From assembly GCA_964584825.1 (NCBI GenBank), contig CAZPBI010000004.1, positions 1 through 37,173 of the forward strand: DNA of 37,173 nt. Direction: 5' to 3'. The DNA comes from Candidatus Woesearchaeota archaeon (GTDB taxonomy: Archaea > Nanobdellota > Nanobdellia > SCGC-AAA011-G17 > JACPIM01). The notes beneath the pieces are model-generated. The model saw only the letters and a list, made by a program, of their open reading frames with translations. It was not told where the DNA came from and made no database searches. The translations under genes and the position numbers were made by a program. Positions 11,769-36,677 of this stretch are shown piece after piece (positions within the stretch are counted from its first letter, which is position 1; every line of letters begins with the position of its first letter).

Positions 11769-12644
11769 TTATGCTGTTAGATTTGATAAATTTACATCAC
11801 TAATTTCTACTAATCTTGTTTTTACAAACGCTGCTAAAAATATCACAGCAATTACGAAAGCAACAATTATCAATAGCGATTTGTCCGGAAGTACACTTGT
11901 TGGAGCAAAAAACAAGGCAAGTGTATTATTAACAATATGCGCACTCATCGGAATTATGAAGTCCTTATAGACAACTGCTAATCCTAAAAAGAAAAATCCC
12001 ATCACAAGTTGAGGTATAGCCCCGACGTACGCAGATGTCCCAATGCCCTTTGTATCACTTACGAAGCTAATAAATCCTCCAATGCTATATTCATATGCCT
12101 CCTTTCCTCTTACTGCAAAATGGAAGGCTGCAAAGACTAATGAGACAATTACAATTGAAGTAATTACAGGGTAAGGAACTTTTTTGCTGCGAAGAATTAG
12201 TGAAATTATTATCATTGCGGTAATGACTAAGAATGTCTCAGTTATGGGTTGAATTAATGTGGCAAACAGAACGCTTTCATTTCCTATACTTCCCAATTCT
12301 GCAAATGTTATGCTTCCCATCAAATTATTCAAAGCAGAAATTCCAGACATGAGAAATCCGATGGTGACAATCAAAAGTACGCCCCACACAAAACCTACTG
12401 ATAATCTACTAAATAATTTTTGTTGATTAGGAACATCAAAATATTCCCCTACTTCTTTCTTTTTGCGAGTAGCAAATATGAGAATGGTACTTCCGACAGT
12501 ACCCGCGAGTAGGAGATTCCATAAGGAAGCCTCCCTGGTTGATAATTCTGGACTAACTGTGAAAAGGAAGAGTGAACTGATAGTAACAAGAAATACTAGA
12601 TATAAAATTACATTACTTTCAAGTTTTGGCATTTTAAAAATCAC
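11769..12644 (-). CDS. CPBP/Abi (CAAX-protease-like) family intramembrane protease homologue, divergent
   Basis: Polytopic protein. It has motif 2 F-x3-H (VFAAFHFAVRG) and motif 3 H-x3-N (MSAHIVNNTL). Motif 1 is degenerate (ITETFLV instead of EExxxR). There is no Cys, so it is not an archaeosortase. The tracked start is GTG 12644; ATG 12632 (MPKLES...) behind AGGTG is likelier. Confidence 0.6.
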   Translation of the reverse strand: MIFKMPKLESNVILYLVFLVTISSLFLFTVSPELSTREASLWNLLLAGTVGSTILIFATRKKKEVGEYFDVPNQQKLFSRLSVGFVWGVLLIVTIGFLMSGISALNNLMGSITFAELGSIGNESVLFATLIQPITETFLVITAMIIISLILRSKKVPYPVITSIVIVSLVFAAFHFAVRGKEAYEYSIGGFISFVSDTKGIGTSAYVGAIPQLVMGFFFLGLAVVYKDFIIPMSAHIVNNTLALFFAPTSVLPDKSLLIIVAFVIAVIFLAAFVKTRLVEISDVNLSNLTA

Positions 12645-12818
12645 CTACATTCTTTCTACTTTTGCTTCCCACCAATGTGTTCCTTTTTTCCTTCTCCTCA
12701 TTATTTCTCTTGCTTTTTTTATTGCTTGTTTTTTGTTTGATGCAAATAGTACAGTATTTAATCTATATTCAAATTTGTATGGTTTAAGTCCTCTTGTATG
12801 TGCTTTTACATTTACCAT
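12645..12818 (-). CDS. 57-aa basic protein, N-terminus MVNVKAHTRG (below ORF-track cutoff)
   Basis: AAGGAAG SD 8 nt before ATG 12818 (an upstream ATG at 12824 is too close to the SD). MVNVKAHTRGLKPYKFEYRLNTVLFASNKKQAIKKAREIMRRRKKGTHWWEAKVERM. The stop abuts the start of the CPBP gene. Confidence 0.5.
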   Translation of the reverse strand: MVNVKAHTRGLKPYKFEYRLNTVLFASNKKQAIKKAREIMRRRKKGTHWWEAKVERM

Positions 12819-12842
12819 TTTCATAACTTCCTTTGTGTTTTA

Positions 12843-13073
12843 TTACCTCTTTACAAAATATGCATTTAAAAATTCTTCACTTACCCACATTTCTCTATCT
12901 CTTCCATTCAAATAATATCTTATTAAATATTCTTCTTCTTCATTTGTAGCATCTTTTTTATCAATATACACTTTTATGTGACTTCCTTCTCCTGGTATGG
13001 TTCCAATTAAATCATCTCCAATCTTATATGCACTATATTTGTTTGCTCTTGTATATTCTCTTACATTAATCAT
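12843..13073 (-). CDS. 76-aa protein, N-terminus MINVREYTRA
   Basis: The tracked ORF starts at 13091 inside the upstream gene. ATG 13073 lies just after that gene's stop and behind GAAAGGGGAAG. The N-terminal motif is shared with 12645..12818. Confidence 0.6.
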   Translation of the reverse strand: MINVREYTRANKYSAYKIGDDLIGTIPGEGSHIKVYIDKKDATNEEEEYLIRYYLNGRDREMWVSEEFLNAYFVKR

Positions 13074-13074
13074 T

Positions 13075-13257
13075 TTATCTTCCCCTTTCATGCTCTTTTA
13101 CAGCAATCGGTTTTATTTCAAACTTCAATTTTCTCCCACTTTTATCTACTTCAAACTCACCTTTAAATCCTTTCTTATATAATTTTTGAACTGCTTCTTG
13201 GTATTCATCCGCACTTCGTTTTCTGCTTTCTTTTCTATAACTATCAAAGAATCCCAT
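13075..13257 (-). CDS. 60-aa basic protein, C-terminal AVKEHERGR
   Basis: ATG 13257 behind AAAGGAGG. Lys/Arg/Glu-rich with no hydrophobic segment. Confidence 0.6.
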   Translation of the reverse strand: MGFFDSYRKESRKRSADEYQEAVQKLYKKGFKGEFEVDKSGRKLKFEIKPIAVKEHERGR

Positions 13258-13259
13258 GT

Positions 13260-13472
13260 TTACATCCTCCTTTCATGTGATTTGACATCTACTCCATATT
13301 CTTTGTATAAAGCTACTTTTATATTATCAACTTCAAATCCTCGTAAATCAAACTTTTCTGGATATTTTATAAGAATTCTCATGTCTTCTTCTGATAGATA
13401 TTCAACATCACTTGGGTCAGTGATTTCACTATCTCTTTCTATTATATCTGCTAAACTTGTAAATGAACTCAT
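13260..13472 (-). CDS. 70-aa acidic protein with C-terminal VDVKSHERRM tail
   Basis: ATG 13472 behind AGGAGGAGGT. The body is acidic (DSEITDPSDVEYLSEEDM). Confidence 0.65.
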   Translation of the reverse strand: MSSFTSLADIIERDSEITDPSDVEYLSEEDMRILIKYPEKFDLRGFEVDNIKVALYKEYGVDVKSHERRM

Positions 13473-13485
13473 TTTTTACCTCCTC

Positions 13486-13596
13486 CTACAAATAAATATA
13501 TATTTCCAGCCCTTTTCGCGTAACCATAATGCGAGTCATCCCACCCTGCTCAAGTAGCGCAAAACTTTTTTTGGCAGTTGAATTCTTTTTTCTCAT
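13486..13596 (-). CDS. Possible 36-aa ORF in a locally GC-rich patch
   Basis: MRKKNSTAKKSFALLEQGGMTRIMVTRKGLEIYIYL. The stop runs into the SD of 13260..13472, but there is no SD of its own. It could instead be non-coding. Confidence 0.2.
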   Translation of the reverse strand: MRKKNSTAKKSFALLEQGGMTRIMVTRKGLEIYIYL

Positions 13597-13606
13597 GCGC
13601 TATTGA

Positions 13607-13843
13607 TTAGATATAATCCTGAACGTCTGGCACGTATGCAGCCAATACTTTTATTATCAGCACTGCTATGAACAGACTTACTATAGTTCCCACTGCCAGT
13701 GGCAACGAAACTTCAGCGATGAATCCTGTAGTCGCTAACATTGGAACTATGAATGCATTTACAATGAACGTTGATACGACGGAAAGAAGCACTGCCAGAA
13801 CTATTGACTGTGTCAATATTTTTTGATAGTCAATATTTACCAT
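13607..13843 (-). CDS. 78-aa membrane protein (2 TM)
   Basis: ATG behind AAAGGAGGGT. Helices SIVLAVLLSVVSTFIVNAFIV and LPLAVGTIVSLFIAVLIIKVLAAY. Confidence 0.7.
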   Translation of the reverse strand: MVNIDYQKILTQSIVLAVLLSVVSTFIVNAFIVPMLATTGFIAEVSLPLAVGTIVSLFIAVLIIKVLAAYVPDVQDYI

Positions 13844-13848
13844 GTTTT

Positions 13849-14382
13849 TTACCCTCCTTTTTCTTCAATACCAACAATTAATTTTGGTAAGAGTAATTTT
13901 TCTTCCAATTCTCTGTCTGATATTTCCTCTTGTGTTTCCTTTTCTTTATTAACAATCTTAATCCTGTAACGTATTTCCACTCTTCGCAAAACTTCTACTA
14001 CACTCCAAGAAATTAAAGTTGCTGCAGTTCCGACAGCCATCATTTCCCCCAATGAAAACTGTAAAGAAAAATTGGAAATTGCAAGCACGACACCTCCAAA
14101 AGCACTCAGAACTAATTTTGCTTCAGGAGAAAGTTCCACAATATATGATAGCATTTCTTTTTGCAGAGCATTGTCAAAAATGCGCCAATCCGCTGCAATT
14201 CTATATGCTGCAAATAAAGTTCCAGCAGTTAAGAAACTCATAAACATGGACAACTCTATTGGAACTCTCAATAATAATAAAAAGAGAGTTTGGGCTAGCA
14301 AACCCATGCACATGAAGCTCCAAATTGTTCCTGACTTTCTCATATTCTTACCTTTAAGCATAAAGGGACTTTTTCTTTTCAT
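13849..14382 (-). CDS. Polytopic membrane protein with charged C-terminal tail
   Basis: About 4 hydrophobic helices followed by KIVNKEKETQEEISDRELEEK. The start is uncertain: ATG 14382 lacks an SD, whereas ATG 14343 (MRKSGTIW...) follows AAAGGTAAG. Confidence 0.7.
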   Translation of the reverse strand: MKRKSPFMLKGKNMRKSGTIWSFMCMGLLAQTLFLLLLRVPIELSMFMSFLTAGTLFAAYRIAADWRIFDNALQKEMLSYIVELSPEAKLVLSAFGGVVLAISNFSLQFSLGEMMAVGTAATLISWSVVEVLRRVEIRYRIKIVNKEKETQEEISDRELEEKLLLPKLIVGIEEKGG

Positions 14383-14403
14383 AGGAGAAGCCCCATAACC
14401 TAT

Positions 14404-15387
14404 TTATTTTTTCTTTCTTGTTGCGAAGTAAATTAATCCTATTACAGCAATTACTATTATCCACATTGGTACTGCTGTTGTTCCTAACATCATTGTACTT
14501 CCTAAGAACGCTTGAACTGCTCCTACTTGTGCTGCTGCTTGTGCTTGTTGTGTAGTTGTTGTTGTTCCTCCTTGAGATTGCTGAATTAATTCTTGTGGTA
14601 CTCCCAATGTTCCTGTAGACACACTTCCTTGCTTTGATGAAAAATTATTTGCTGCATCAAATTTCGCAAGACATGTGTAGTAGGTTTTTGGATATTGCAA
14701 ACCCTTAATAGTTGTTTCTGTTAGTGTTGAATCATTGCTGTCAGATGTTGAGTTTGGATAGTTTGTGCAGGTTTCTTGATATAACGTTCCATAATACACT
14801 CTCCAAAATGAATATTCTAATGGAGAACTATTACTATCTTGCAACCACTTAATTTTTACTGTTCCATTTTCCATTGGCTGAACGTAAGCCTCTGGTGGAG
14901 TTGGTGTTGAATTATCAGCAAAGAATCCAGAACTGCATACAATATTATTATCTGGTGCTAATTTGTCTGCTCCTCTGTGGACATTGTAGTCATTAACATT
15001 AACATCAATCCAATAATTTAAATCTATTGAATTGACATCAAAACTAACACTACATGTTCTTCCTGTTCTTATATTGCTGTCTGTATCACTACAATCTGTA
15101 TCTGACATCAAATTTATATCTTTGATTTTCAAGCAGTTTGAATCTGACATTGCAAGTGTTGATGTTTTACAGACATAAACATTTGCATCATGTGTTCCGC
15201 TTATATCACTATTTGTATCAGACCAAGCAAAGTTTATTGTATGTGTCCCTTTCCAATATTTTGTTGTATCAGGTTGAGATACATTACAATCTAAAGTTCC
15301 CTGCAAAGCTGTTGATGTTGTAATTAATGTTATGAAAACCATCGCCATTAATGCTGTTAATATTGCGCTTCTCCTTACACTTCCCAT
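14404..15387 (-). CDS. Type-I membrane protein: diverged copy of the giant-protein repeat domain + FN3-like domain + Thr/Gln-rich stalk + TM
   Basis: Signal/anchor ILTALMAMVFITLITTSTA. INFAWSDTN...RTCSVSFDVNSIDLNYWIDVNVNDYN resembles ...TTCHWDWNI...IFIDINVTDNN. FN3-like stretch PPEAYVQPMENGTVKIKWLQDS...FWRVYYG. GGTTTTTQQAQAAAQ stalk. C-terminal WIIVIAVIGLIYFATRKKK. Confidence 0.85.
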   Translation of the reverse strand: MGSVRRSAILTALMAMVFITLITTSTALQGTLDCNVSQPDTTKYWKGTHTINFAWSDTNSDISGTHDANVYVCKTSTLAMSDSNCLKIKDINLMSDTDCSDTDSNIRTGRTCSVSFDVNSIDLNYWIDVNVNDYNVHRGADKLAPDNNIVCSSGFFADNSTPTPPEAYVQPMENGTVKIKWLQDSNSSPLEYSFWRVYYGTLYQETCTNYPNSTSDSNDSTLTETTIKGLQYPKTYYTCLAKFDAANNFSSKQGSVSTGTLGVPQELIQQSQGGTTTTTQQAQAAAQVGAVQAFLGSTMMLGTTAVPMWIIVIAVIGLIYFATRKKK

Positions 15388-15435
15388 TTTTTGACCTCCG
15401 CTTATTTTATTATCATTTTTAATGAATGATAAATA

Positions 15436-15705
15436 TTATATTCTCTTTTTATGTGATTTAACTTTTACTTTTTTATCCCAATATCTTGATTCTTCTTTAG
15501 AAATTTTCATAAAATATGTGTCTAAACTAACTCCTTTTTTTGCACTATCTACTATTGCTTTTGCTCGCTTAATTGCAAACTCTTTTGTAGATGCTGGACC
15601 ACTCAAACTATCTCTAATTGTTTGGTCTTCTCTCCAAACAAAATAATTCCAAGCAAAAATTGACTTTTCTACTAAAATATTATATCCTTTGTATTTTATT
15701 TTCAT
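15436..15705 (-). CDS. 89-aa soluble protein with C-terminal VKVKSHKKRI tail
   Basis: ATG behind AGGAAGGAGA. There is no hydrophobic segment. Confidence 0.7.
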   Translation of the reverse strand: MKIKYKGYNILVEKSIFAWNYFVWREDQTIRDSLSGPASTKEFAIKRAKAIVDSAKKGVSLDTYFMKISKEESRYWDKKVKVKSHKKRI

Positions 15706-15707
15706 TT

Positions 15708-16217
15708 TTATCTCCTTCCTCTCTTTTTTGTTCTGTTATACAAAACTGAAACAACAAATACTGCTAAAATTACTAATATAAAATTTCCAGTTGTCATTTC
15801 AACTCCACCACCTTGAGAAATCATTGTTGTTTTAACTCCTTCAAAAACACTTCCAGTTTGTAAGGGAATGACACCTAAAAATTTAGAAGTGAATTGTTGT
15901 ATATTGTTGCCGAAAAATCCTATCACCAAACCCATTATGCCCATCACTAAGAAAACGAAATTCAAAGTTAAATTCCATCCATGACCTTTAAATATTGGAA
16001 TGGCGGGAGCCATTACAGCAAGCCCAATGAATATTATTCCGAAAAGTACTGCTCCAAGGAAAGGAAAAGCTCCAGCTAACAAAGTGAGAATAAAAACTCC
16101 TATTCCAAAAGCAATTACTGTTTGAAGTATTTGTTGAAGACTTAAATATTTTTCAAATGTTTTTCCCCCTTCTCCTCTTTCTCTATAAATAGAATCTGGA
16201 CCATATTCATATGCCAT
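15708..16217 (-). CDS. Polytopic membrane protein (4-5 TM)
   Basis: Gly/Ile/Phe-rich helices (VIAFGIGVFILTLLAGAFPFLGAVLFGIIFIGLAVMAPAIPIF ...). The ATG directly abuts the upstream stop. Confidence 0.8.
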   Translation of the reverse strand: MAYEYGPDSIYRERGEGGKTFEKYLSLQQILQTVIAFGIGVFILTLLAGAFPFLGAVLFGIIFIGLAVMAPAIPIFKGHGWNLTLNFVFLVMGIMGLVIGFFGNNIQQFTSKFLGVIPLQTGSVFEGVKTTMISQGGGVEMTTGNFILVILAVFVVSVLYNRTKKRGRR

Positions 16218-25191: not shown

Positions 25192-25329
25192 TTATTCACC
25201 TGCTTTTTCTTCACAAAATTCTTTCATAAATTTTGTTATTTCATCTTTCATAGAAGTTTGTAATTTTGCACATTTGGATTTAAAATTAGCATGAACTTCA
25301 TCGTCAATTTCTAATAGAATTTTTTTCAT
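25192..25329 (-). CDS. 45-aa ribbon-helix-helix (Arc/MetJ/CopG-like) candidate regulator (below ORF-track cutoff)
   Basis: MKKILLEIDDEVHANFKSKCAKLQTSMKDEITKFMKEFCEEKAGE. The pattern is a beta-strand (ILLEID), helix, turn, helix. It is the first gene of the leftward 25.3-21.3 kb unit. Confidence 0.45.
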   Translation of the reverse strand: MKKILLEIDDEVHANFKSKCAKLQTSMKDEITKFMKEFCEEKAGE

Positions 25330-25387
25330 TTTAACACCTATTTTTTACCTATTTTTTATTTAATTAATATATATATAAATAATGACC

Positions 25388-25424
25388 TTTATAAATCTTT
25401 TTATTTTGGACAGGAGTTTGAAGG
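25388..25424 (-). promoter_or_regulatory. Leftward promoter (TATA 25388-25395, minus sense) with C-rich upstream element
   Basis: The minus-sense reading CCTTCAAACTCCTGTCC-AAAATAAAAAGA-TTTATAAA lies about 60 nt upstream of ATG 25329. It aligns with 20832..20873 and 26040..26082. Confidence 0.5.
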
Positions 25425-25576
25425 TATTTTTGGTTGTTTTGGCAGTGTTTAGGTAAATAACTATAACCTAAATAAGGTTTGACAGGTGTTGTATATTAGT
25501 TAGTGAGTAGGAGTTGTTTAGTTTTTAGAAGATGTAGTATAATATATATTATATATGACTATAGTATTTATTACTG

Positions 25577-25655
25577 ACTTTTTAACTTTTTAAGGTTTTT
25601 TAAAGGTGTTTTGAGAATTTCATAATGAACTTTTTAACTTTTTAACTTTTTAACC
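25577..25655 (+). repeat. Two clusters of 8-bp tandem repeats (AACTTTTT)
   Basis: ACTTTTTAACTTTTTAAGGTTTTTTAAAGG (25577-25606) and AACTTTTTAACTTTTTAACTTTTTAACC (25628-25655). Confidence 0.8.
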
Positions 25656-25746
25656 TTTACGTAATATAAAAATATACCTATAACAGATAAACGTAATGAA
25701 CGATTTATTTATACACATATTTATATATGTACTAGGTTATTTAAAA

Positions 25747-25856
25747 AACCAAGAAACCTAATTCAAGAAGGAGAAATAATCCTTCTTTTGGTGTCTTTAT
25801 TATATGAGAAGGCTTCTTTAGGTTCTTTAATATGTTATCAAACCAAGAAACCTAAT
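25747..25856 (+). repeat. Perfect 16-mer direct repeat AACCAAGAAACCTAAT, 94 bp apart
   Basis: The copies are at 25747-25762 and 25841-25856. The first is followed by the hairpin AGAAGGAgaaataaTCCTTCT. Confidence 0.8.
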
Positions 25857-25931
25857 CTCTATACTTATAAAAGAAGGGAGATTATGTATTGTTTTATTAA
25901 AATCTGGTATAATTATAATTTTTTACTTTTG

Positions 25932-26027
25932 AGGAGTAAAATTATATGATTTTCAGCAAATGGTAAAAGAAGGTAAAATTTACTTTCTTTTAGTAAAAGT
26001 AATATATTTGATAGGAGATTTACTCCT
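25932..26027. repeat. Nested inverted repeats (cruciform-capable)
   Basis: The outer 9-bp repeat is perfect: AGGAGTAAA (25932-25940) / TTTACTCCT (26019-26027). The inner one is AAAAGAAGGTAAA (25965-25977) / TTTACTTTCTTTT (25979-25991), 12 of 13 complementary. Confidence 0.7.
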
Positions 26028-26039
26028 TTTTTCACTTTT

Positions 26040-26088
26040 CAACACCTTCAAAACACCCCGAAATAATAAAAAGGTTTATATATAACAA
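26040..26088 (+). promoter_or_regulatory. Rightward promoter of the replication operon: C-rich upstream element + A-rich spacer + TTTATATATAACAA
   Basis: CAACACCTTCAAAACACCCC-GAAATAATAAAAAGG-TTTATATATAACAA. The TATA 14-mer is identical to 20947..20960. Confidence 0.55.
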
Positions 26089-26151
26089 GGTTTATAATAT
26101 AATAATAATAAATTTGAATGATTAAAATAATAAAAAAAGGAGGAAAAAATA

Positions 26152-26451
26152 ATGGTAGAGGAGGAAAAGGAAAAAACTGAGGAAGTATATGGAAAAGTAG
26201 TTTTTAGGAGGAATATGAGGAATGTTGGTAGCTCCCTTTCAATATACTTCCCAAAAGAGTTACTTGAGTACATAGATGTGAAAGAGGGCGATGAAGTGTT
26301 AGTGTGTGGAGATGTAGGAAAGCACGGACATTTCTTAGGTATTTGGAACCCTATACAACAAGAACGAATGAAAAGAGAAAGAGAGGGCAAGGAAATGAAG
26401 AGTGATATAGAAGAAAACGAGACACCAAAAGAACATGAAATTAATGAATAA
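26152..26451 (+). CDS. AbrB/SpoVT-family DNA-binding protein (cassette 1 head)
   Basis: Strong SD AAAGGAGG. VGSSLSIYFPKELLEYIDVKEGDEV is the AbrB core. The C-terminal HGHFLGIWNPIQQERMKRE is paralogous to WGKFLAVWSTAQQERKRKE of 28376..28606. Confidence 0.7.
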   Translation: MVEEEKEKTEEVYGKVVFRRNMRNVGSSLSIYFPKELLEYIDVKEGDEVLVCGDVGKHGHFLGIWNPIQQERMKREREGKEMKSDIEENETPKEHEINE

Positions 26452-26672: not shown

Positions 26673-28133
26673 ATGTACCGCTATCAGGAATTATTAAAAA
26701 TTTGGATGAAATATACTGATTGTTTTTGTGTAAGTAATGAATGGTTAAAAGAACCTCTATTTTGGGTTCTTAATTCACAATTATTGAGGGCGACATTTAC
26801 TGAAGGAGGAGTTAAACGCCCTTTAAGAGAGCATTTCTTTTGCGTGCAGGGCGCACGAACAGGGAAGGGCAGAGCAATGAGAGCTGCCAAGCATATGTTT
26901 ATGTTTTTTAATAGAGAAGAAAGAGAGAAGAGAGAAAGAATAGCGAAAGAGGCATTAAATAAAATTAATTTAGAGATGATAGGATTAGATGAAAGTAAAA
27001 GTATTGAAAATACAACTACATCTACTACAACTACAAATATTGATTTAAATAGCAATGCCGAGTTTTACAATAAGTTTGATGAAAACACACTTGATGAAGA
27101 AGGTGTGTTTAATGTAAAAGAATTATCAGGTGAAGTAACTCTTGCTGCACTAGTAGGAGGAATTGAGTATGAAAGTCATAAAGGAAAAGTGAGTAAAATC
27201 ATAAAAAAAGGAATGCTTGAAAAATATAACTATCTTTGTTGGGAAGAAGGAGGAGATTTGGTTGCTCCTAGGAATTTATATGGTAATTTAAAATCAACAA
27301 TTCTAAATGCTCTTGAAGATGCTTCTCCTATTACTCGTTCTGCAAGAAAGGATTTAAATTTAGATGGTAGTATGTCTTCTTTTTATAGCCACACAAGTGT
27401 AGCAACGGGAACTGTGTTAATACCTGAAATAACAAAGGACTTCCAAGCAAGTGGAATGTTACAAAGGTTTTTATTTAGTTATAAAAACTTTACTCCTGAT
27501 GAATATGATGATTTGATAAAAAGAATAAATCTTCTTCCTGCTCAGAGAAGTGTAGCAGAAGGAAATGAATACAAACATGAATATCATCATGCATTCTATA
27601 ACAAATACTACGAAAAGGATATTTGTTTAGGTGATAAACATACATTAGAGGAATATAATGCATTCAAGATGAAAGAAGTAGAGCCGTTGAGAAAAAAGTT
27701 TGTAGGTGATAACAAAGTTCAGACAATGATGGGGTTTATAATTCAAAACACACTGCATGACCATAAAATAGCAAGTATGATTGCTTCTCTTGAAAATGAA
27801 AAAATGGTTAGTTTGGATATGTATAAGGAAGCGAATAAATACACCTATAGTAGTTTGGAAAGTATAGCAAAATTAATGGAAAGGGATTTTACTTATGCCA
27901 AATCAGAGGGTGAGATTAAAAGGCAAGATTCAATTTTGAATATAATTAAAAATAATCAACCAATAAACCAATCTAACTTACTTGAAAAGTTAAGAAACAT
28001 TCAATCAGAAGGGAAATGGGATTTTAGGTATAATTCATCATTGAAATTATTAGAAGAGATGGAAAAAGCAAGAATAATAAAAACAACAAAAGGAGGAAAA
28101 GGTAATGTTAAATTCTATTCCTTTTCAAGATAA
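26673..28133 (+). CDS. AAA+-like ATPase with C-terminal winged helix; candidate replication initiator/helicase (distant MCM/Orc-Cdc6-like)
   Basis: The tracked start 26640 is TTG. ATG 26673 follows AGGAGAG. Deviant P-loop CVQGARTGKGRA; acidic Walker-B-like YLCWEEGGD; GMLQRFLFSY resembles the MCM arginine-finger context LLSRFDL. The C-terminal LLEKLRN...LKLLEEMEKARIIKTTKGGKGNVKFY looks like a wHTH. The assignment is tentative. Confidence 0.4.
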   Translation: MYRYQELLKIWMKYTDCFCVSNEWLKEPLFWVLNSQLLRATFTEGGVKRPLREHFFCVQGARTGKGRAMRAAKHMFMFFNREEREKRERIAKEALNKINLEMIGLDESKSIENTTTSTTTTNIDLNSNAEFYNKFDENTLDEEGVFNVKELSGEVTLAALVGGIEYESHKGKVSKIIKKGMLEKYNYLCWEEGGDLVAPRNLYGNLKSTILNALEDASPITRSARKDLNLDGSMSSFYSHTSVATGTVLIPEITKDFQASGMLQRFLFSYKNFTPDEYDDLIKRINLLPAQRSVAEGNEYKHEYHHAFYNKYYEKDICLGDKHTLEEYNAFKMKEVEPLRKKFVGDNKVQTMMGFIIQNTLHDHKIASMIASLENEKMVSLDMYKEANKYTYSSLESIAKLMERDFTYAKSEGEIKRQDSILNIIKNNQPINQSNLLEKLRNIQSEGKWDFRYNSSLKLLEEMEKARIIKTTKGGKGNVKFYSFSR

Positions 28134-28375
28134 AAGTAAAGAGAATACAATACAAAATACTACTACTCATCAAAAGATTGAATAGAAAATGAAAAATTAA
28201 AAAAATAAAGATAAAAAAGGAAAAAAAATAGTGATGAATTATATGTTTTTTTCAAGATAAGGATTAATTGATTAATTATAAAAAATTAAGTATACCTATA
28301 TATTTAAATATAACCTCCTATATAATATATTAAAGGTTATAAGAGATTTATAAAATTGTATAAAGGAATGATAAG

Positions 28376-28606
28376 ATGGCGGAAGAACCAATTAGTAAAG
28401 AAGTATACAAGAAAAACTTATACGACACTGGAGGCTCACTTGCTGTAGTAATTCCAAAAAACTTTTTAGATGAACTGGAGTTAGAGTTGGGAAAAGAGAC
28501 AGAAGTAATGATGTGTATAGATGAGGGAAAGTGGGGAAAGTTTTTAGCAGTATGGAGTACCGCACAGCAAGAGAGAAAGAGAAAAGAAATGAAAGAAGAG
28601 AAATGA
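28376..28606 (+). CDS. AbrB/SpoVT-family DNA-binding protein (cassette 2 head)
   Basis: TGGSLAVVIPKNFLDELELELGKETEV is the AbrB core. TTTATAAAA lies about 27 nt upstream of the ATG, so the transcript may be near-leaderless. Confidence 0.7.
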   Translation: MAEEPISKEVYKKNLYDTGGSLAVVIPKNFLDELELELGKETEVMMCIDEGKWGKFLAVWSTAQQERKRKEMKEEK

Positions 28607-30661: not shown

Positions 30662-31399
30662 ATGACAAGGTTTGAAGTAAATGCAGAAACTTTGAGTAGC
30701 TTTTTCAGTAAAATAAACCTAGATGAATTTAACATTAAGGTGTGTAAGGAAGGTTGGTTCGTAGAGGGAATCGACAGAGAGAATTTAAGCGCTGTTTTTG
30801 GAATATTGAAAAAGAATGCTTTTTTCACATACCCTACAATTGAAGAAGAAAAATTAATAGGAATTGAAAGTAAGGAAAAGTTTTTAAAATTCCTTGAAAG
30901 ATTTGATGATAAAATATCAATAGAAGTAAAGGAGAAAGTGTTATATATAATTTCACTAAATCGCCAACTGGAGATGATACTTCCACATGAAAGTATTTTG
31001 GTCAAAACCAAGCAACCTAATCTAACATATCAAGGAAATTTTACAATAAAATCAGAGGTGTTTAAACAAGCGGTAAAGAATAATCAATTACTTGAATCGA
31101 GTAAATACATACTACAAATAACAGAAGGAGAATTATCAATTGTCTCCACAAACAATGTTGATAAGATTATTGAAATAGCGAAAATAAACTACCCAAATTG
31201 TAAGGGAGTATTTGGAGATAAAATTAGAGAGGTATTTACTCCATTAAGCGGAGATGTTAAAATTTCACTTTCTACAAACTATCCCCTGCTAATAGAGTAC
31301 GAAGATAAAGTAAGTGAGTTGAAATATGTGATTGCGCCAATTGTAGAGGAGGAAAATTATGGAAAAGATAATGCCGTGGGTGGAGAAGTACCGGCCTAA
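30662..31399 (+). CDS. pcna: PCNA-type sliding clamp
   Basis: The 245-aa length is typical of PCNA. The N-terminus is MTRFEVNAETLSSFFSKINLDEFNIKVCKEGWFVEGID. The C-terminal ELKYVIAPIVEEE matches the PCNA signature (human HLKYYLAPKIEDEE). Confidence 0.85.
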   Translation: MTRFEVNAETLSSFFSKINLDEFNIKVCKEGWFVEGIDRENLSAVFGILKKNAFFTYPTIEEEKLIGIESKEKFLKFLERFDDKISIEVKEKVLYIISLNRQLEMILPHESILVKTKQPNLTYQGNFTIKSEVFKQAVKNNQLLESSKYILQITEGELSIVSTNNVDKIIEIAKINYPNCKGVFGDKIREVFTPLSGDVKISLSTNYPLLIEYEDKVSELKYVIAPIVEEENYGKDNAVGGEVPA

Positions 31400-32267
31400 A
31401 GAATTTGAGGAGGTAATAAACCTTCCAAAGTATATTCCCACAATTGTAGAAAAAAATATGCCTCATTTATTGTTAGTGGGAAGCCCTGGAACTGGGAAGA
31501 CGACAGTAGCAAGGATTATTATAAATAAATTAGGTGCGGAATATTTGGAATTAAATGCCTCTGATGAAAGAGGGATTGATGTAGTAAGGAATACAATAAA
31601 ACATTTCGCCTCTACACAATCATTTAACAATAAAATAAAAATAGTATTTTTAGACGAGTGCGATGGGATGACGCAAGAAGCAATGGAAAGCTTAAGAAAT
31701 ACAATTGAAAAATATAGTGGAGTTTGTAGGTTCATAGGCAGTGCAAATAATTTGAATAAAATTACTTCTGCTCTAAAAAGTAGATTTTCTGTTTTACAAT
31801 TTACTAATCCTCCTGAAGAAGATATAAGAAAAAGATTAGAGTATATTTTAAAACAAGAAGGTGCAATTTGTGACGATGAAATTTTGAAAAGAATAATTAA
31901 GCATTATTTTCCTGACATCCGTCAAATGATTAACGTGTTACAAATAAACGAAGATAAAGGAAAAATAGTTGAAAATAGAAATATTTTAAGTGAAAACATA
32001 ACACAAACTATTTACAATTATTTAAAAGCAAAAGCATTTCCAGCAATTAGGGAACGAATTGTTAAGAACGGAATTAATGTAAGTGAATTACTTGAGGGAT
32101 TAGAGGAAAGAATTTTTAATGATAATAGTATAACAACAGAAAAAAAGAAAAAATTGCTAATGTTTTTGTGTGAATGCAATCGTAATATATCAAGTGTTGC
32201 TATCCCAAGATTAGAATTTGAAGATTTTACATTAAAATTTATAAGTGAGTTAGGAGAAACAAAATGA
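31359..32267 (+). CDS. rfcS: Replication factor C small subunit (clamp loader AAA+)
   Basis: PWVEKYRPKEFEEVI (RFC box II), LLVGSPGTGKTT (Walker A), VFLDECDGMT (Walker B), ALKSRF (the SRC-motif position). It overlaps the PCNA gene by 41 nt. SD GAGGAGG. Confidence 0.9.
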   Translation: MEKIMPWVEKYRPKEFEEVINLPKYIPTIVEKNMPHLLLVGSPGTGKTTVARIIINKLGAEYLELNASDERGIDVVRNTIKHFASTQSFNNKIKIVFLDECDGMTQEAMESLRNTIEKYSGVCRFIGSANNLNKITSALKSRFSVLQFTNPPEEDIRKRLEYILKQEGAICDDEILKRIIKHYFPDIRQMINVLQINEDKGKIVENRNILSENITQTIYNYLKAKAFPAIRERIVKNGINVSELLEGLEERIFNDNSITTEKKKKLLMFLCECNRNISSVAIPRLEFEDFTLKFISELGETK

Positions 32268-32635
32268 CAGAAGATAAAATAAAAACCTTTGATGCATTGA
32301 GGGAATTATATGTTAATCCTAATCCCTCTATACTTCCTTTTGTAGAAAAAAATATTAATCCATATTTCTTTACTTTATATACGAGTTTTGATTATAATAA
32401 TAAACATAATACAAAACTTTTCAATAAATATTTGAATATTGATAAGAGTTTGTTTTGGAAATTGGTATTCCTCCACATAAAAAGGTGTGAGGTGTTTTAT
32501 TGGAATAAGGATTATATTAAAATGAAAAAAATAGAGGAAGATGAATTTAAGAATAAAGTAAAGAAGATATTTAATTGGAGTGAAAAAGAATGGAATTGTA
32601 ATAAGGCAGTTGTTATGAAAAAAATGAAAGAGTAA
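32264..32635 (+). CDS. 123-aa hypothetical protein translationally coupled to RFC-S (possible clamp-loader accessory subunit)
   Basis: ATGA overlap with the rfcS stop. Aromatic-rich and Lys-rich, with no motif recognised except a PIP-like EKNINPYF. Confidence 0.6.
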   Translation: MTEDKIKTFDALRELYVNPNPSILPFVEKNINPYFFTLYTSFDYNNKHNTKLFNKYLNIDKSLFWKLVFLHIKRCEVFYWNKDYIKMKKIEEDEFKNKVKKIFNWSEKEWNCNKAVVMKKMKE

Positions 32636-32753: not shown

Positions 32754-33422
32754 ATGTTTGTAACGGAAATTTTCTGCTCAACGGAAGGAGAGGGAATAAG
32801 AGTAGGAACTCCTGAGGTGTTTATAAGGTTTGCTGGATGTTCAATTGGTTGCCGTGCGTGCGATACACCTTACGCCTTAAATAAAGAAAATGGAAAAGAA
32901 ATGAGTGTAGAAGAAATTGTTGAGGAAATTGAAAAATATAAAATAAAAAATGTTGTATTGACAGGAGGTAGCCCCTTAGAACAAGAATTAGAGGAATTGA
33001 GGGAATTGATATATAAATTGAAAAGATATTATTATTATGTTGTGCTTGAAGAAAGTGGTCAAAAGTATGATAGCGAAATTTTTGATATTGTGGATTTTCT
33101 TTCTTTGGATATTAAAACCCCTAGTAGTGGAGTAAAAATTAATGAGGAAACTTTCTATTACATAATAAGTATGTTTAAGAAAAATAAATATCAATTTAAA
33201 ATGGTTGTTAGTGATGATAAAGATTGGGAGTTTGTAAAAAAGATTGTTAATAGATATGGAGATAAAAATTTTGTAGTGACCCCTTGTTGGAATATTAACC
33301 AAGAAAATGTAAATGTGGAATTAATAGAAAAAATATTGAAGGATTTGCAAGAAAATACATTACCTATCAGAATTATCGTACAGCAACATAAGTTGTTGTA
33401 CAAACATAAGAGAGGTGTATAA
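32754..33422 (+). CDS. queE: 7-carboxy-7-deazaguanine synthase (radical SAM)
   Basis: The N-terminal EIFCSTEGEGIRVGTPEVFIRFAGCSIGCRACDT carries the QueE-type C-x3-C-x2-C cluster motif and the preceding QGEG-like box. Confidence 0.85.
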   Translation: MFVTEIFCSTEGEGIRVGTPEVFIRFAGCSIGCRACDTPYALNKENGKEMSVEEIVEEIEKYKIKNVVLTGGSPLEQELEELRELIYKLKRYYYYVVLEESGQKYDSEIFDIVDFLSLDIKTPSSGVKINEETFYYIISMFKKNKYQFKMVVSDDKDWEFVKKIVNRYGDKNFVVTPCWNINQENVNVELIEKILKDLQENTLPIRIIVQQHKLLYKHKRGV

Positions 33423-33423
33423 G

Positions 33424-33600
33424 ATGATTTTATGTGAAGAATGTGGAACTTCAAACTGGGAAATAGTAATAGAAGATTTAGAAAAAAAAGGTGAAGAAGG
33501 TAAATTTTTTCTTTTACAATGTATAGAATGTAAAAGAACAGTAGCATTAGAAGGAAATCCACAAGATATTTTAAATGCTAAAAAGACGGAATTTATATGA
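33424..33600 (+). CDS. 58-aa zinc-ribbon protein
   Basis: The tracked start 33415 is GTG. ATG 33424 follows AGAGGTG. The Cys pairs are CEEC ... CIEC. Confidence 0.6.
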   Translation: MILCEECGTSNWEIVIEDLEKKGEEGKFFLLQCIECKRTVALEGNPQDILNAKKTEFI

Positions 33601-33611
33601 GGTGAAAGAAA

Positions 33612-33815
33612 ATGGAAGATATTGTAGAGAAAAAAGAAGGAAAAATAAGTTATGCAATTGAAAAAGGAGTAATCGTTCAATTAAATAAAACAACAAAAGG
33701 AACTTACTCATATGTGTTGAGAATTGGAGGTATTCCTAATTTTGCAGAGGCTTTAGACCAATTATTCGAGGCGAAAAGAAGATTAGAAGGGTTAATAAAG
33801 GAGGAAGTAAAATGA
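33612..33815 (+). CDS. 67-aa hypothetical protein
   Basis: SD GAGGTGA. The stop overlaps the queC ATG (ATGA). No motif recognised. Confidence 0.6.
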   Translation: MEDIVEKKEGKISYAIEKGVIVQLNKTTKGTYSYVLRIGGIPNFAEALDQLFEAKRRLEGLIKEEVK

Positions 33816-34552
33816 GTAAAAAAGCAGTATGTATTGTCAGCGGAGGGATGGACAGTGTAACTCTTCTACATAAAGCAGTTAAAGAATTAGGAAAAGAAAA
33901 TGTTAGTGTATTGAATTTCCATTATGGAAGCAAACATAATAATAGGGAAAGGCCTTTTGCAAAATTAAACGCAAAACTTTTAGGTGTTAAATATACAGAA
34001 ATAAATTTGGATTATATCAATAAATTATGGAAATCTGATTTATTGAAAAGTGGTGGAAAAATTCCAGAGGGGCATTATGCGCAAGATAATATGAAATTAA
34101 CTGTAGTGCCGTTTAGGAATGGAATAATGTTAGCAAATGCTGTAGGATTTGCAGAAAGTATAGGATTTAATGAAGTATGGTTAGGCAGCCATAAAGGAGA
34201 TAGGGCTCAGTATAAAGATTGTTCTAAGGAATTTACAAAAGCAATGAGTAAAGCAGCAGAGATAGGAACTGATAAAGGAATAAAAATTCTTTCTCCTTTT
34301 AATAATATAATGAAATCAGATATTGTAAAAATAGGAGTTGAATTAAAAGTTCCTTATGAAAAAACATTTAGTTGCTATGTTGGAGAAAAAAGGCCATGCT
34401 TGCGTTGTGGAACTGATGTTGAAAGAACTGAAGCATTTTATAAAAATAACATAAAAGACCCTCTTCTTACAATTAAGGAATGGGAAATAGCAGTTAGTTA
34501 TATGAAGAAAACATTAAAAGAATTTGATAAAAAACAAAAGGTAAAAATATGA
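33812..34552 (+). CDS. queC: 7-cyano-7-deazaguanine (preQ0) synthase
   Basis: PP-loop AVCIVSGGMDSVTLL. The C-terminal Cys cluster is SCYVGEKRPCLRCG. The length and order match QueC. Confidence 0.85.
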   Translation: MSKKAVCIVSGGMDSVTLLHKAVKELGKENVSVLNFHYGSKHNNRERPFAKLNAKLLGVKYTEINLDYINKLWKSDLLKSGGKIPEGHYAQDNMKLTVVPFRNGIMLANAVGFAESIGFNEVWLGSHKGDRAQYKDCSKEFTKAMSKAAEIGTDKGIKILSPFNNIMKSDIVKIGVELKVPYEKTFSCYVGEKRPCLRCGTDVERTEAFYKNNIKDPLLTIKEWEIAVSYMKKTLKEFDKKQKVKI

Positions 34553-34653
34553 AAAAGTGTTTTGTTTGTAGTGGAAGTAAAAAGACAAAAACATCTGTAA
34601 TGAGAAAGTATATTTGCAAACCGTGTTTTGAAAAGATTAAAGTGAAAAAATGA
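34549..34653 (+). CDS. 34-aa zinc-ribbon mini-protein (below ORF-track cutoff)
   Basis: MKKCFVCSGSKKTKTSVMRKYICKPCFEKIKVKK (CxxC ... CxxC). ATGA overlaps with queC upstream and the PRTase gene downstream. Confidence 0.5.
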   Translation: MKKCFVCSGSKKTKTSVMRKYICKPCFEKIKVKK

Positions 34654-35051
34654 ATAAAATGAGTAAGAAATTCATAACCTGGGAGGAAATGGACAGAGTT
34701 GTAGAGGATTTGGCAGAGAAGATTAGAAAAACAAAACATAAGTATAGTGCAATATACTTTGTTCCAAGAGGAGGAGCAATTCCTGCTGTAATGCTTTCAC
34801 ATAAATTAAATCTTCCATTTACACACTTACCAATAGATGAGAATATTTTAATTGTGGATGAAATTGTTGATGGAGGAAAGACATTATTATTCCATAAAAA
34901 GATATGTAGCAAATCCTCTAAATTTGCAAGTTGTTATGTGAAGGAATGTACTATTGAAAAACCAGACTTTTTTGTTGAGGAAATTCCAAAAAATATATGG
35001 TTGGTATTTCCATGGGAAACTGAAAAAACTTCGAGGAGAGATAACAAATGA
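34650..35051 (+). CDS. Xanthine-guanine phosphoribosyltransferase (Gpt)-like type-I PRTase
   Basis: ITWEEM, FVPRGGAIPAVMLSHKLN, the PRPP loop ILIVDEIVDGGKT and NIWLVFPWE are colinear with E. coli Gpt as I remember it (VTWDML, AVSRGGLVPGALLAREL, IVIDDLVDTGGT, DTWIEQPWD). Confidence 0.7.
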   Translation: MNKMSKKFITWEEMDRVVEDLAEKIRKTKHKYSAIYFVPRGGAIPAVMLSHKLNLPFTHLPIDENILIVDEIVDGGKTLLFHKKICSKSSKFASCYVKECTIEKPDFFVEEIPKNIWLVFPWETEKTSRRDNK

Positions 35052-35443
35052 AAGGAGAATATATTTTAAGTAAAAAGTTTGAAATTGCTGCATCACATAA
35101 GTTAGAAGATAAAAAACTAACATATGAAGAAAATAGAAAAATATTTAATCACTGTAATGATTTGCATGGCCACAGTTTTATTATAGAAATTTTGTTAAAA
35201 GGAAATAATTTAAACAATGGAATGCTGATAAATTTTAGCAAGTTAAAAGAATTTTTTGAAGAAAAAATAAAACCTTTTATAGACCATAAACATTTGAATG
35301 ATATACTTGTTTTACCTACATCAGAAAATTTAGCAAAGTTTATCTATACAATTTTTAAAGGAGAAAAAACCTTTTCAAAATTACTTTATGCAATTAGAGT
35401 ATATGAAAGTTTAAATTCATATATAGAGTATAAGGAGGAATAA
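35048..35443 (+). CDS. queD: 6-carboxy-5,6,7,8-tetrahydropterin synthase
   Basis: CNDLHGHSFIIEI (the Cys-x3-HGH catalytic/zinc motif of QueD/PTPS). The ~130-aa size fits. ATGA overlap upstream. Confidence 0.8.
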   Translation: MKGEYILSKKFEIAASHKLEDKKLTYEENRKIFNHCNDLHGHSFIIEILLKGNNLNNGMLINFSKLKEFFEEKIKPFIDHKHLNDILVLPTSENLAKFIYTIFKGEKTFSKLLYAIRVYESLNSYIEYKEE

Positions 35444-35446
35444 ATA

Positions 35447-35986
35447 ATGGAGGAAGAAATAAAAAAGATTTTAGAAGGAATAGGAGAAAATCCAGATAGA
35501 GAAGGATTAAAAGATACTCCAAAAAGAGTTGTAAAAAGTTTTGAAAAATTATATGGAGGATATAAAGATGATTATAAAAAACATTTAACAACTTTTGATG
35601 CTGAAGGTTATGATGGAGTGATTTTATTGAAAGACATTGAATTATATTCTACTTGCGAGCATCATATGCAAATTTTTGAGGGCAAGTGCCATATAGCTTA
35701 TGTCCCAAATGGAAAGATTATAGGAGTAAGTAAGTTGATTAGGATTATGGAAATATTTGCGAGGAGACTACAAATCCAAGAGCGTCTAACAAAACAAATT
35801 GCAGATGCCTTACAGGAAATTCTCAATCCTCTTGGATTGATGGTATATATTGAAGCACAACACTTCTGTATAAGAAGTAGAGGTGTAGAAAAACAAAATA
35901 GTGTAATGGTTACTTCTGTTCTAAAAGGAAAATTCTTAACGGAACCAGAAATGGAAATGAAAATTCTTCAAATGATTAAAAAATGA
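35447..35986 (+). CDS. folE: GTP cyclohydrolase I
   Basis: YSTCEHHMQIFEGKCHIAYVPNGKIIGVSKLIRIMEIFARRLQIQERLTKQIADAL matches the GCH-I core almost motif for motif. Confidence 0.9.
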   Translation: MEEEIKKILEGIGENPDREGLKDTPKRVVKSFEKLYGGYKDDYKKHLTTFDAEGYDGVILLKDIELYSTCEHHMQIFEGKCHIAYVPNGKIIGVSKLIRIMEIFARRLQIQERLTKQIADALQEILNPLGLMVYIEAQHFCIRSRGVEKQNSVMVTSVLKGKFLTEPEMEMKILQMIKK

Positions 35987-36002
35987 AAGGAGGTGTGTAA
36001 AA

Positions 36003-36134
36003 ATGGCGTTTGGTAAATATACAATTTCCTTCAAAGGATGCACAGATAGTATGGAAGATGTTTTCGGCAGTGAAGGCATTCCTCCTTCACAAATGATAAA
36101 GAGAATATGGGAATATGTAAAAGAGAAAAAATTG
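36003..36134 (+). CDS. 43-aa ORF with SWIB-like helix motif (below ORF-track cutoff)
   Basis: AGGAGGT SD. In MAFGKYTISFKGCTDSMEDVFGSEGIPPSQMIKRIWEYVKRKN, the segment V-x-G-x-x-x-x-P-x-x-x-x-x-K-x-[IL]-W-x-Y-[IV]-K resembles the first half of SWIB/MDM2 domains. This is weak. Confidence 0.3.
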
Positions 36135-36161
36135 AGCAGTAAGTAAAAGGAGGAGATAAAA

Positions 36162-36677
36162 ATGGAAGAAAAACCAAAAGAAGAAAATAGAGGAATAGAA
36201 GGAAGTCAGTGGAGTTATGGAAGTAAAATGGAAAGTTTTACAGAGGAGGAATTGAAAGAAAGGATAAAAAAAGCAATGGAGTATGAAATTCCAAATAAAA
36301 TTCGTCCTATTCCTTTTATGGGAAATGAAAGAGAATTAATCCGATATAGATACTCAGAATTAATAGCTCGTTGTCCGGTGACTGGGATTAGCGACATGTA
36401 CGACATACTGATTGACTTTATTCCCTCCAATACAATCCCAGAGTTAAAAAGTCTAAAAATTTATTTCTGGGCATATCAGCAACTTCCAATCTCTCACGAA
36501 CATTTAGCAGCAAAAGTCTATAACGACTTTACAAAAACAATAAATCCTAAAGAATGTAAACTAACATTACTTGTCAGTGAGAGAGGAGAATTAAGAACAT
36601 CAGTTGTGTTAGGAAAAATATCTCTACAAAACGGAGAAGGTTTTGATAGAGAATATATAAAACCTTATCAATGGTAA
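36162..36677 (+). CDS. queF: NADPH-dependent 7-cyano-7-deazaguanine reductase (preQ0 to preQ1), unimodular type
   Basis: The catalytic Cys context is LIARCPVTGISDMYD. QueF motif ELKSLKIYF, then SHEH. It is 171 aa with a charged N-terminal extension of about 40 aa. Confidence 0.8.
   Translation: MEEKPKEENRGIEGSQWSYGSKMESFTEEELKERIKKAMEYEIPNKIRPIPFMGNERELIRYRYSELIARCPVTGISDMYDILIDFIPSNTIPELKSLKIYFWAYQQLPISHEHLAAKVYNDFTKTINPKECKLTLLVSERGELRTSVVLGKISLQNGEGFDREYIKPYQW

Follow-up and report, generated by a model that had tools for sequence, protein, structure and literature searches.

The DNA analyzed here (hereafter, the window) is the entire 37,173-bp metagenomic contig CAZPBI010000004.1, deposited as Candidatus Woesearchaeota archaeon (GenBank assembly GCA_964584825.1), which has ∼30% G+C, lacks terminal repeats, and comes from a groundwater setting, where the element is present at a depth of ∼5× in four metagenome runs (Logan contigs). 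Its genes form two blocks, one on the − strand, which takes in every gene in positions 1 to 25329, and one on the + strand, with every gene from 26152 onward. The blocks are separated by a noncoding gap of 822 bp (25330 to 26151), measured from the ATG codon of a leftward 45-aa open reading frame (ORF) to that of a rightward 99-aa ORF, which is the largest intergenic gap of the contig (more than twice the size of the next largest) and its sole switch of gene orientation. An initial annotation of this DNA had placed a candidate replication origin at 25425 to 26039 and had described that stretch as noncoding, lying between divergent genes, and coinciding with the flip in gene orientation; all this agrees with our analysis, except that 25425 to 26039 is just the core of the gap, since the true gap spans 822 bp. 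We lean toward the view that replication of a probably archaeal double-stranded DNA virus is controlled from this gap, in which arrays of the 8-mer AACTTTTT and AT-rich tracts in the left-central part make up an iteron-type origin served by a self-loading helicase. This origin is favored because the arrays are beyond chance, an MCM-like helicase is encoded nearby, and repeat-rich regions are found beside the helicase gene in related elements. The features that carry this reading are the following.

25330 to 26151, no strand: noncoding control region (largest gap, sole orientation switch), with a cumulative G-C minimum at 25397 and an A-T minimum at 26039.
25535 to 25575, no strand: AT-rich low-stability tract adjoining iteron cluster 1, a candidate DNA-unwinding element (z = 3.2 in 40-bp windows).
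25577 to 25600, + strand: iteron cluster 1, consisting of (G)ACTTTTT AACTTTTT and then the variant AAGGTTTTTT (repeat finding).
25628 to 25659, + strand: iteron cluster 2, three AACTTTTT units plus AACCTTTA in tandem, with an 8-bp period and in the orientation of cluster 1 (repeat finding, simulation).
25660 to 25740, no strand: AT-rich spacer that separates the iterons from the ∼96-bp units to their right, an alternative candidate unwinding element (composition, stability), with a TATA-like TTTATATA at 25711.
26673 to 28133, + strand: predicted minimal MCM-like (superfamily 6 [SF6], DUF3987-like) helicase of 486 aa (family profile search, structure model).

The AACTTTTT repeat is present in six copies, all on the + strand, that are grouped in two tandem clusters, one of 2 copies at 25577 to 25593, the first of which reads GACTTTTT, and one of 3.9 copies at 25628 to 25659. 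Five copies of one 8-mer in 822 bp were seen in none of 1,000 first-order Markov simulations (p < 0.001), so the two clusters of 8-mers that had been pointed out in the initial annotation are indeed beyond chance. The stretch from 25535 to 25734 is the second least stable 200-bp segment of the window. Exact-pattern scans of viral contigs for the AACTTTTT array, as well as for a 17-mer repeat from the right half of the gap (see below), returned chance matches in unrelated viruses and nothing else. In groundwater runs X1 to X4, other contigs, with a depth of 27 to 65× versus the ∼5× of the window, hold a segment identical to the 32-nt array at 25628 to 25659, which is embedded there in a longer array with an 8-bp period and the variant units AACCTTGT, AACCTTTA, and AACCCTGT; these contigs may represent a co-occurring element with a related array.

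In the initial annotation, the region had been described as adjoining genes for an AAA+ initiator-like protein, PCNA, and RFC. The PCNA-like and RFC-like genes are present, but the AAA+ neighbor is, as judged from its structural model, a minimal MCM-like (SF6) helicase and not an Orc1/Cdc6-type initiator, because it shows structural matches to MCM proteins, an SRF-like arginine motif, and a winged helix and has no N-terminal domain. The protein had no family match in Pfam and PHROG, and a word-indexed protein search retrieved only the query itself. An exhaustive HMMER search found 80 relatives, among which DUF3987 was recognized, weakly, in 9 of 40 and the MCM P-loop domain, again weakly, in 4 of 40 (best E values of 5e-6 and 7.5e-4, respectively). 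The AlphaFold model built from the family alignment had a predicted local distance difference test (pLDDT) score of 88.5, and the top 50 Foldseek matches in PDB were all MCM subunits, with an E value of ∼1e-10 and a probability of 1.0 to MCM2-7 and archaeal MCM. The predicted protein consists of an AAA+ core and a C-terminal winged helix, the latter modeled in the last ∼75 residues (412 to 484) as a helix-helix-helix-strand-strand fold. The AAA+ core, with its Walker A motif at residues 59 to 66, starts at approximately residue 40, so there is no room for the N-terminal oligonucleotide/oligosaccharide-binding (OB)-fold and zinc domain of MCM, and the total length is 486 aa, compared to 600 to 700 aa in MCM. 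Residues G64 and K65 are nearly invariant in the family, whereas E192 and R265 are invariant, the latter as part of the sequence LQRF that resembles the SRF finger of MCM.

Proteins of the DUF3987 family are regarded as divergent SF6 replicative helicases with a winged helix-turn-helix domain at the C terminus (PMC4889955). The window protein shares with such DUF3987/MCM-like (SF6) helicases, which are found in phages and in mobile elements of archaea (Kazlauskas et al. 2016, PMC4889955), and with Cch of SCCmec (PMC7581432), the MCM-like AAA+ fold, the SRF-type finger, and a winged helix-turn-helix domain at the C terminus but differs from them in having no Pfam match, no N-terminal OB/zinc domain, no recognizable primase, either fused or adjacent, and a disordered insertion. 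This insertion (residues ∼85 to 150, encoded at 26925 to 27120) comprises ∼65 residues predicted with low confidence, is rich in Ser, Thr, and Asn (TTTSTTTTN...), and is absent from the closest relatives. No Orc1/Cdc6-like protein was found in the window.

The contigs that encode members of this helicase family were fetched and their flanks were examined for repeats, with duplicates merged (L001 with L013 and L003 with L004 to L006 and L011). Six other distinct elements with this helicase family carry short, element-specific repeats in the noncoding region adjoining the helicase operon. Four of the six have tandem arrays whose period is ∼8 bp, several have repeats in opposed orientations, and three have repeats that begin directly behind the helicase stop codon, as listed below.

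L001: ∼10 TAGTTTTT/AAAAACTA units with a period of 8 bp, forming two opposed sets; an AbrB-like gene and the helicase gene lie downstream of them.
L003: at least 15 GATAAACTG units with a period of 8 to 10 bp, in both orientations, in a 1.2-kb gap that separates the AbrB operon from the helicase operon and is not at a divergence point.
L007: 8 GGCGATTTTAA units, starting 6 bp past the helicase stop codon.
L031, the closest relative of L007: different arrays, of TAAATTTT, with a period of 8 bp, right after the helicase stop codon, as in L007.
L030: TAATCCCC arrays with a period of 8 bp that form opposed sets, immediately follow the helicase stop codon, and lie between convergent genes.
L012: inverted 13-mers (extending to 42 nt) on either side of an AT-rich center.

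A repeat-rich noncoding region beside the helicase operon is found in all distinct relatives with enough flanking sequence, save L028 and the distant L010. The helicase is the sole protein common to all array loci; AbrB-like genes are found in four of them, and a gene for a ribbon-helix-helix (RHH) protein is found in the window only. There is no nucleotide similarity between the gap of the window and the relatives, except for a promoter-like motif (see below). No relatives turned up when viral contigs and genome contigs were scanned with the helicase sequence or with its alignments, and a metagenome scan found three loci, two of which belong to the same elements as L001 and L003; the members of these pairs are near-identical, so they offer no substitution pattern to exploit. 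Searches of a phage collection, at both the nucleotide and protein levels, with the region and the helicase as queries gave no match. In L029, 15-bp repeats at 2223 to 2672 were considered as iterons and rejected, being coding repeats of a pentapeptide-repeat protein that is encoded just downstream of the helicase.

The recurrence of the arrays beside the helicase in six other elements speaks against their being functionless slippage products in an AT-rich spacer, even though replication slippage can generate tandem 8-mers. It is likewise highly improbable that the region is a packaging (pac or cos) site: the contig, having no terminal repeat, is not closed, which would fit such a site, but no terminase-like genes or structural start genes adjoin the region, and the contigs from the individual runs span it without ends or length variants of the element.

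If the AACTTTTT arrays are indeed an origin, the helicase would recognize the 8-bp iterons through its C-terminal winged helix, oligomerize on the array, melt the neighboring AT-rich DNA, and load itself with no need for a separate initiator. PCNA and RFC, both encoded by the virus, would then serve a polymerase that is absent from the window, and forks would move outward on both sides, each in the direction in which the gene block on that side is transcribed. A well-described parallel is provided by the Rep/ori modules of Staphylococcus aureus pathogenicity islands (SaPIs), in which a self-loading helicase of superfamily 3 or SF6 uses its C-terminal winged-helix domain to bind iterons of 5 to 6 bp that are present in 6 to 12 copies around an AT-rich center, beside the rep gene (PMC9371898, PMC7581432); the Rep2 protein is of the SF6/MCM-like type (PMC9371898, PMC7581432). 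The family described here resembles these modules (above all those of the SF6 Rep2/SaPIbov1 type) in combining an AAA+ helicase with a winged helix, short (5- to 8-bp) iterons, and AT-rich DNA nearby with no separate initiator or loader, and the likeness extends to L007, L031, and L030, whose arrays begin right after the helicase stop codon and are organized in opposed sets. The six short iterons of the window, located in the noncoding control region of the helicase operon, are within the SaPI range of 6 to 12 but do not lie immediately downstream of the gene. The window array differs from those of SaPIs in its location, at the divergence point and ∼1 kb upstream of the helicase, in its single orientation, and in its 8-bp unit; no sequence relationship to the SaPI Reps was detected, and the element is a virus of 37 kb or more, with its own PCNA and RFC and a probably archaeal host.

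Archaeal chromosomal origins, in which origin recognition boxes (ORBs) or mini-ORBs flank a DNA-unwinding element beside orc1/cdc6, share with the window an AT-rich repeat region near replication genes and an MCM-type helicase to be loaded, and in L012, too, an AT-rich center is flanked by inverted 13-mer elements. They differ from the window in that the latter has no Orc1/Cdc6 gene and has 8-bp tandem units instead of dyad-containing ORBs of 13 to 36 bp; a comparison by eye recognized no similarity of the window repeats to the known ORB consensus.

Several observations weigh against the assignment of the AACTTTTT arrays as an origin. No inverted copy of AACTTTTT with at most one mismatch was found in 25330 to 26151, and there are no two-sided opposed iterons (at least two on each side of an AT-rich center). 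All six iterons have the same orientation, unlike those in the canonical two-sided origin, in SaPI origins, and in five relatives (L001, L003, L007, L030, and L031), all of which have the opposed-set layout. Among the elements that have short tandem iterons, the window has the smallest array (six copies), and ∼1 kb, with two small genes in it, separates this array from the helicase gene downstream. The least stable 200 bp of the window are found elsewhere, at 28177 to 28376, and an AT-richness as high as that beside the arrays is seen at other promoter regions of the window. L028 and L010 have no such array within the flanks at hand. As the contig is incomplete, another origin may lie outside it. 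Finally, the cumulative skew, a check that had been proposed with the initial annotation, does have its inflection in the region, but the G-C and A-T minima lie exactly where gene orientation flips; since it is confounded with coding-strand bias, skew is not independent evidence, cannot discriminate between the readings, and was rejected as an argument for an origin. The candidate origin of the initial annotation nevertheless remains the best explanation of the region and has gained comparative support from six elements, whereas the arguments from skew, the identity of the initiator, a C-free tract, and inverted repeats (see below for the last two) have been lost.

The edges of the gap and the genes that border it call for a different kind of explanation to be considered. 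The features in question are the following.

25192 to 25329, − strand: first gene of the leftward block, encoding a 45-aa ParG-type RHH protein (Pfam ParG, 23.4 bits versus the cutoff of 21.4; E value of 6.6e-5).
25336 to 25358, − strand: perfect tandem 11-mer ACCTATTTTTT, 2.1 copies, in the leftward 5′ leader, between the TATA-like box and the RHH start codon (repeat finding).
25385 to 25402, − strand: leftward promoter-like motif AAAAAGATTTATAAAGG, found as an identical 18-mer in L007.
26066 to 26100, + strand: rightward promoter-like motif, duplicated, ATAAAAAGGTTTATA and ATAACAAGGTTTATA (motif search).
26152 to 26451, + strand: first gene of the rightward block, encoding a 99-aa AbrB/SpoVT/MazE-like DNA-binding protein (matches below the Pfam cutoff).

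The divergent promoters that the initial annotation had placed on either side of the region were recovered as promoter-like motifs, with AAAAAGRTTTATA at 25400 (−) and 26070 (+). The motif AAAAAGRTTTATAWA precedes both gene blocks and three other operons and, judging by its sequence, looks like an archaeal B recognition element (BRE) plus TATA box. In the window, the form AAAAAG(A/G)TTTATA(A/T)AGG is found at 25385 to 25402 (−), 26066 to 26100, 28342, 20828 (−), and 8726 (−); in the relatives, it is found at 2567 and 4998 of L007, 1397 of L031, and 2882 and 2950 of L003. The motif is therefore common to otherwise unalignable elements with this helicase family, in places as an identical 18-mer. 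In the rightward block, the AbrB-like gene is followed by a 63-aa ORF and the 486-aa AAA+ gene; a paralogous AbrB-like gene is located at 28376 to 28606, and each of the two AbrB/SpoVT-like paralogs heads a rightward operon behind a copy of this promoter-like motif. The fold signature of the protein encoded at 26152 to 26451 recurs in L001, L003, and L012.

The main alternative to an origin, which the initial annotation had not considered, is that the region, with small DNA-binding proteins encoded by both flanking genes, is solely a transcriptional switch, in which the AACTTTTT arrays bind the ParG-type RHH protein and/or the AbrB-like proteins and control divergent early and late promoters, with replication starting elsewhere. 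ParG binds arrays of ACTC boxes separated by regular 4-bp AT-rich spacers, one dimer per box, mostly in direct orientation, which makes the period 8 bp (PMC3130281). Given that a ParG-type gene is adjacent and that the form of the array, ACTT-TTTA repeated six times in direct orientation, matches the box-plus-spacer form of ParG sites, the AACTTTTT array could be an RHH operator, and this likeness, too, counts against an origin. The resemblance to the parH-OF arrays of plasmid TP228 covers the ParG-type RHH gene at the edge, the 4-bp boxes (ACTT versus ACTC), the 4-bp AT-rich spacers, and the mostly direct repeats; the differences are that no ParF/ParA partner was found, that there are 6 boxes versus 8 and 12, that the arrays are far from the promoter, and that the arrays of related elements come without an RHH gene. 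AbrB-like genes do accompany the arrays in L001, L003, and L012, and the arrays of L007 and L031 are just upstream of the conserved promoter-like motif. However, no RHH protein was detected in any array-bearing relative, and the arrays of L030 cannot be promoter operators, as they sit between convergent genes. In the window, the arrays are ∼190 to 270 bp from the leftward promoter-like motif and ∼420 to 490 bp from the rightward one, which is far for archaeal-type repression, whereas the ACCTATTTTTT tandem at 25336 to 25358 is better placed and could be the operator of the RHH protein; no ParA/ParF-type partner was seen among the ORFs scanned. On this evidence, a switch without an origin appears rather unlikely, and control of transcription by the arrays would in any case be compatible with their serving as an origin. 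If it were nonetheless the correct explanation, the region would represent a ParG-like RHH operator array in a virus, a finding of lesser interest.

The right half of the gap, between the putative origin and the rightward promoter-like motif, contains repeats of a different kind.

25741 to 26030, + strand: three degenerate ∼96-bp tandem units, with the 17-mer AAACCAAGAAACCTAAT at 25746 and 25840.
26013 to 26040, + strand: hairpin resembling a terminator, AGGAG-ATTTA-CTCCT, with a T-run after it, lying just upstream of the rightward promoter-like motif (one found, 0.3 expected).

The perfect 16-mer direct repeat reported in the initial annotation turned out to be a 17-mer, with its copies 94 bp apart; a nonoverlapping repeat of that length was obtained in 0.2% of 1,000 Markov simulations (p of ∼0.002) and is above chance. 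Each unit carries one dyad of the AAGAAGG...CCTTCTT type (25765 to 25787, 25869 to 25893 [degenerate], and 25964 to 25992), and 3 of the 4 copies of AAAAGAAGG in the window fall inside 25741 to 26030. These units and the promoter-proximal repeats probably provide the sites to which the RHH and AbrB-like regulators, the products of the two bordering genes, bind. A third copy of the 17-mer is found inside the PCNA-like gene (AAACCAAGCAACCTAAT, 31005 to 31021, +), 5 kb from the intergenic copies and in the same orientation; it matches at 16 of 17 bases, and with its flanks at 19 of 20 in comparison with copy 2. By a rough estimate, a match as close as this one would arise by chance in ∼1 to 2% of cases.

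Two other features of the initial annotation are real but carry little weight. The 75-nt C-free run at 25484 to 25558 is surpassed by at least six other C-free runs of the window, which reach up to 130 nt. The nested inverted repeats, a 9-bp pair (25914 to 25922 and 25938 to 25946) and a 13- to 14-bp pair (25964 to 25992), are likewise present but at chance level, as perfect hairpin stems of the observed length were found in 58% of simulations. Another explanation is that 25741 to 26040 encodes one or more small noncoding RNAs, each starting at the 17-mer AAACCAAGAAACCTAAT, bearing a hairpin, and ending in a T-run, with 26013 to 26040 as a terminator. Such RNAs would fit with the position of the TATA-like TTTATATA (25711), which precedes the first 17-mer by ∼28 bp, with the perfect 8-bp hairpin of the first unit followed by TTTT, with the terminator-like site at 26013, and with RNA folding z-scores of −2.0 (+ strand) and −2.7 (− strand) in the right half, compared to ∼0 in the left half. 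Still, these z-scores are modest, the stem lengths are expected by chance, the second 17-mer has no equally placed TATA, and Rfam gave no match at gathering thresholds or at E values of ≤1, which makes this explanation improbable. A tRNA scan found nothing. No detectable support was obtained for small ORFs in the gap, such as the 40-aa ORF at 25913 to 26035 (−), which has AGGTG 7 nt before its GTG start codon. A 10-bp inverted pair, GGTGTTTTGA at 25605 and 26048, was considered as the ends of a miniature inverted-repeat transposable element and rejected, because pairs this long are expected by chance. The heptamer AGGTGTT occurs 17 times in the window versus 4.5 expected, including four times in the gap (25333, 25484, 25604, and 26041); two left copies on the + strand face one right copy on the − strand, and the RHH gene has one of these copies as its Shine-Dalgarno sequence.

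The remaining genes bear on the nature of the host. To the right of the helicase gene and the second AbrB-like gene, the + strand block encodes an unknown 357-aa protein, a Sak4/AAA_24-like ATPase, and the sliding clamp and clamp loader.

30662 to 32267, + strand: PCNA-type sliding clamp (30662 to 31399) and RFC small-subunit-like clamp loader (31359 to 32267), assigned by homology.

The clamp matches PCNA-type clamps only, not T4 gp45, and nothing in the phage collection, whereas the clamp loader is about equally similar to archaeal RFC-S (E value of 6e-45 versus PDB) and to gp44 of T4-like phages (37 to 41% identity). Because of the PCNA-type-only clamp, the RFC-S-like loader, and the BRE plus TATA-like motif, an archaeal host is probable, as far as sequence features can tell. 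In the relative L003, which has the same helicase family and promoter-like motif, positions 12443 to 16184 carry a gene for a 1,563-aa C-family (PolIII-alpha type, bacterial-type) polymerase with an N-terminal uracil-DNA glycosylase domain, as well as ThyX. C-family polymerases had been reported, as of 2016, in bacteriophages only (PMC4889955), which leaves two possibilities, a helicase family present in both host domains or an uncertain host assignment.

Iteron origins with a self-loading helicase encoded alongside are a known kind of replication module, and the advance made here is modest: minimal MCM-like helicases of uncultivated viruses, an undescribed family, gain a signature by which their probable origins can be recognized. 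To our knowledge, the origins of archaeal and other uncultivated viruses have almost never been defined. Should the AACTTTTT arrays be confirmed as an origin, the start of replication in a virus that cannot be grown would be marked by a short array and one 486-aa protein, which would offer a simple in vitro system for loading of an MCM-type helicase in which no initiator takes part, and the rule of arrays with an 8-bp period beside this helicase would allow annotation of origins across the metagenomic virus family. A broader and more doubtful generalization, which we offer tentatively, is that minimal MCM-like helicases are widespread, undescribed self-loading initiator-helicases of uncultivated archaeal viruses and phages, each of them using its winged helix to read iterons of its own with an 8-bp period. 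In that case, the window would contain the first sequence-defined origin of an MCM-encoding tailed archaeal virus, together with a two-component system (one protein and one ∼100-bp site) in which MCM-type loading could be studied in the absence of ORC/Cdc6.

The − strand block includes a 1,711-aa ORF and an ORF of at least 1,032 aa that leaves the contig at its left end. On the + strand, the clamp, the clamp-loader large subunit, and a 123-aa ORF follow each other in this order (31359 to 32635), an arrangement that we take to resemble the 45-44-62 operon of T4-like phages, in which case the 123-aa protein would presumably be a gp62-like small subunit. The rightmost genes are those of 7-deazaguanine (preQ0-type) biosynthesis: 32754 to 36677 (+) encode radical-SAM QueE-like, QueC, phosphoribosyltransferase, PTPS/QueD, GTP cyclohydrolase I, and QueF-like proteins (preQ0/queuosine type), and this cluster suggests that the virus modifies its DNA.

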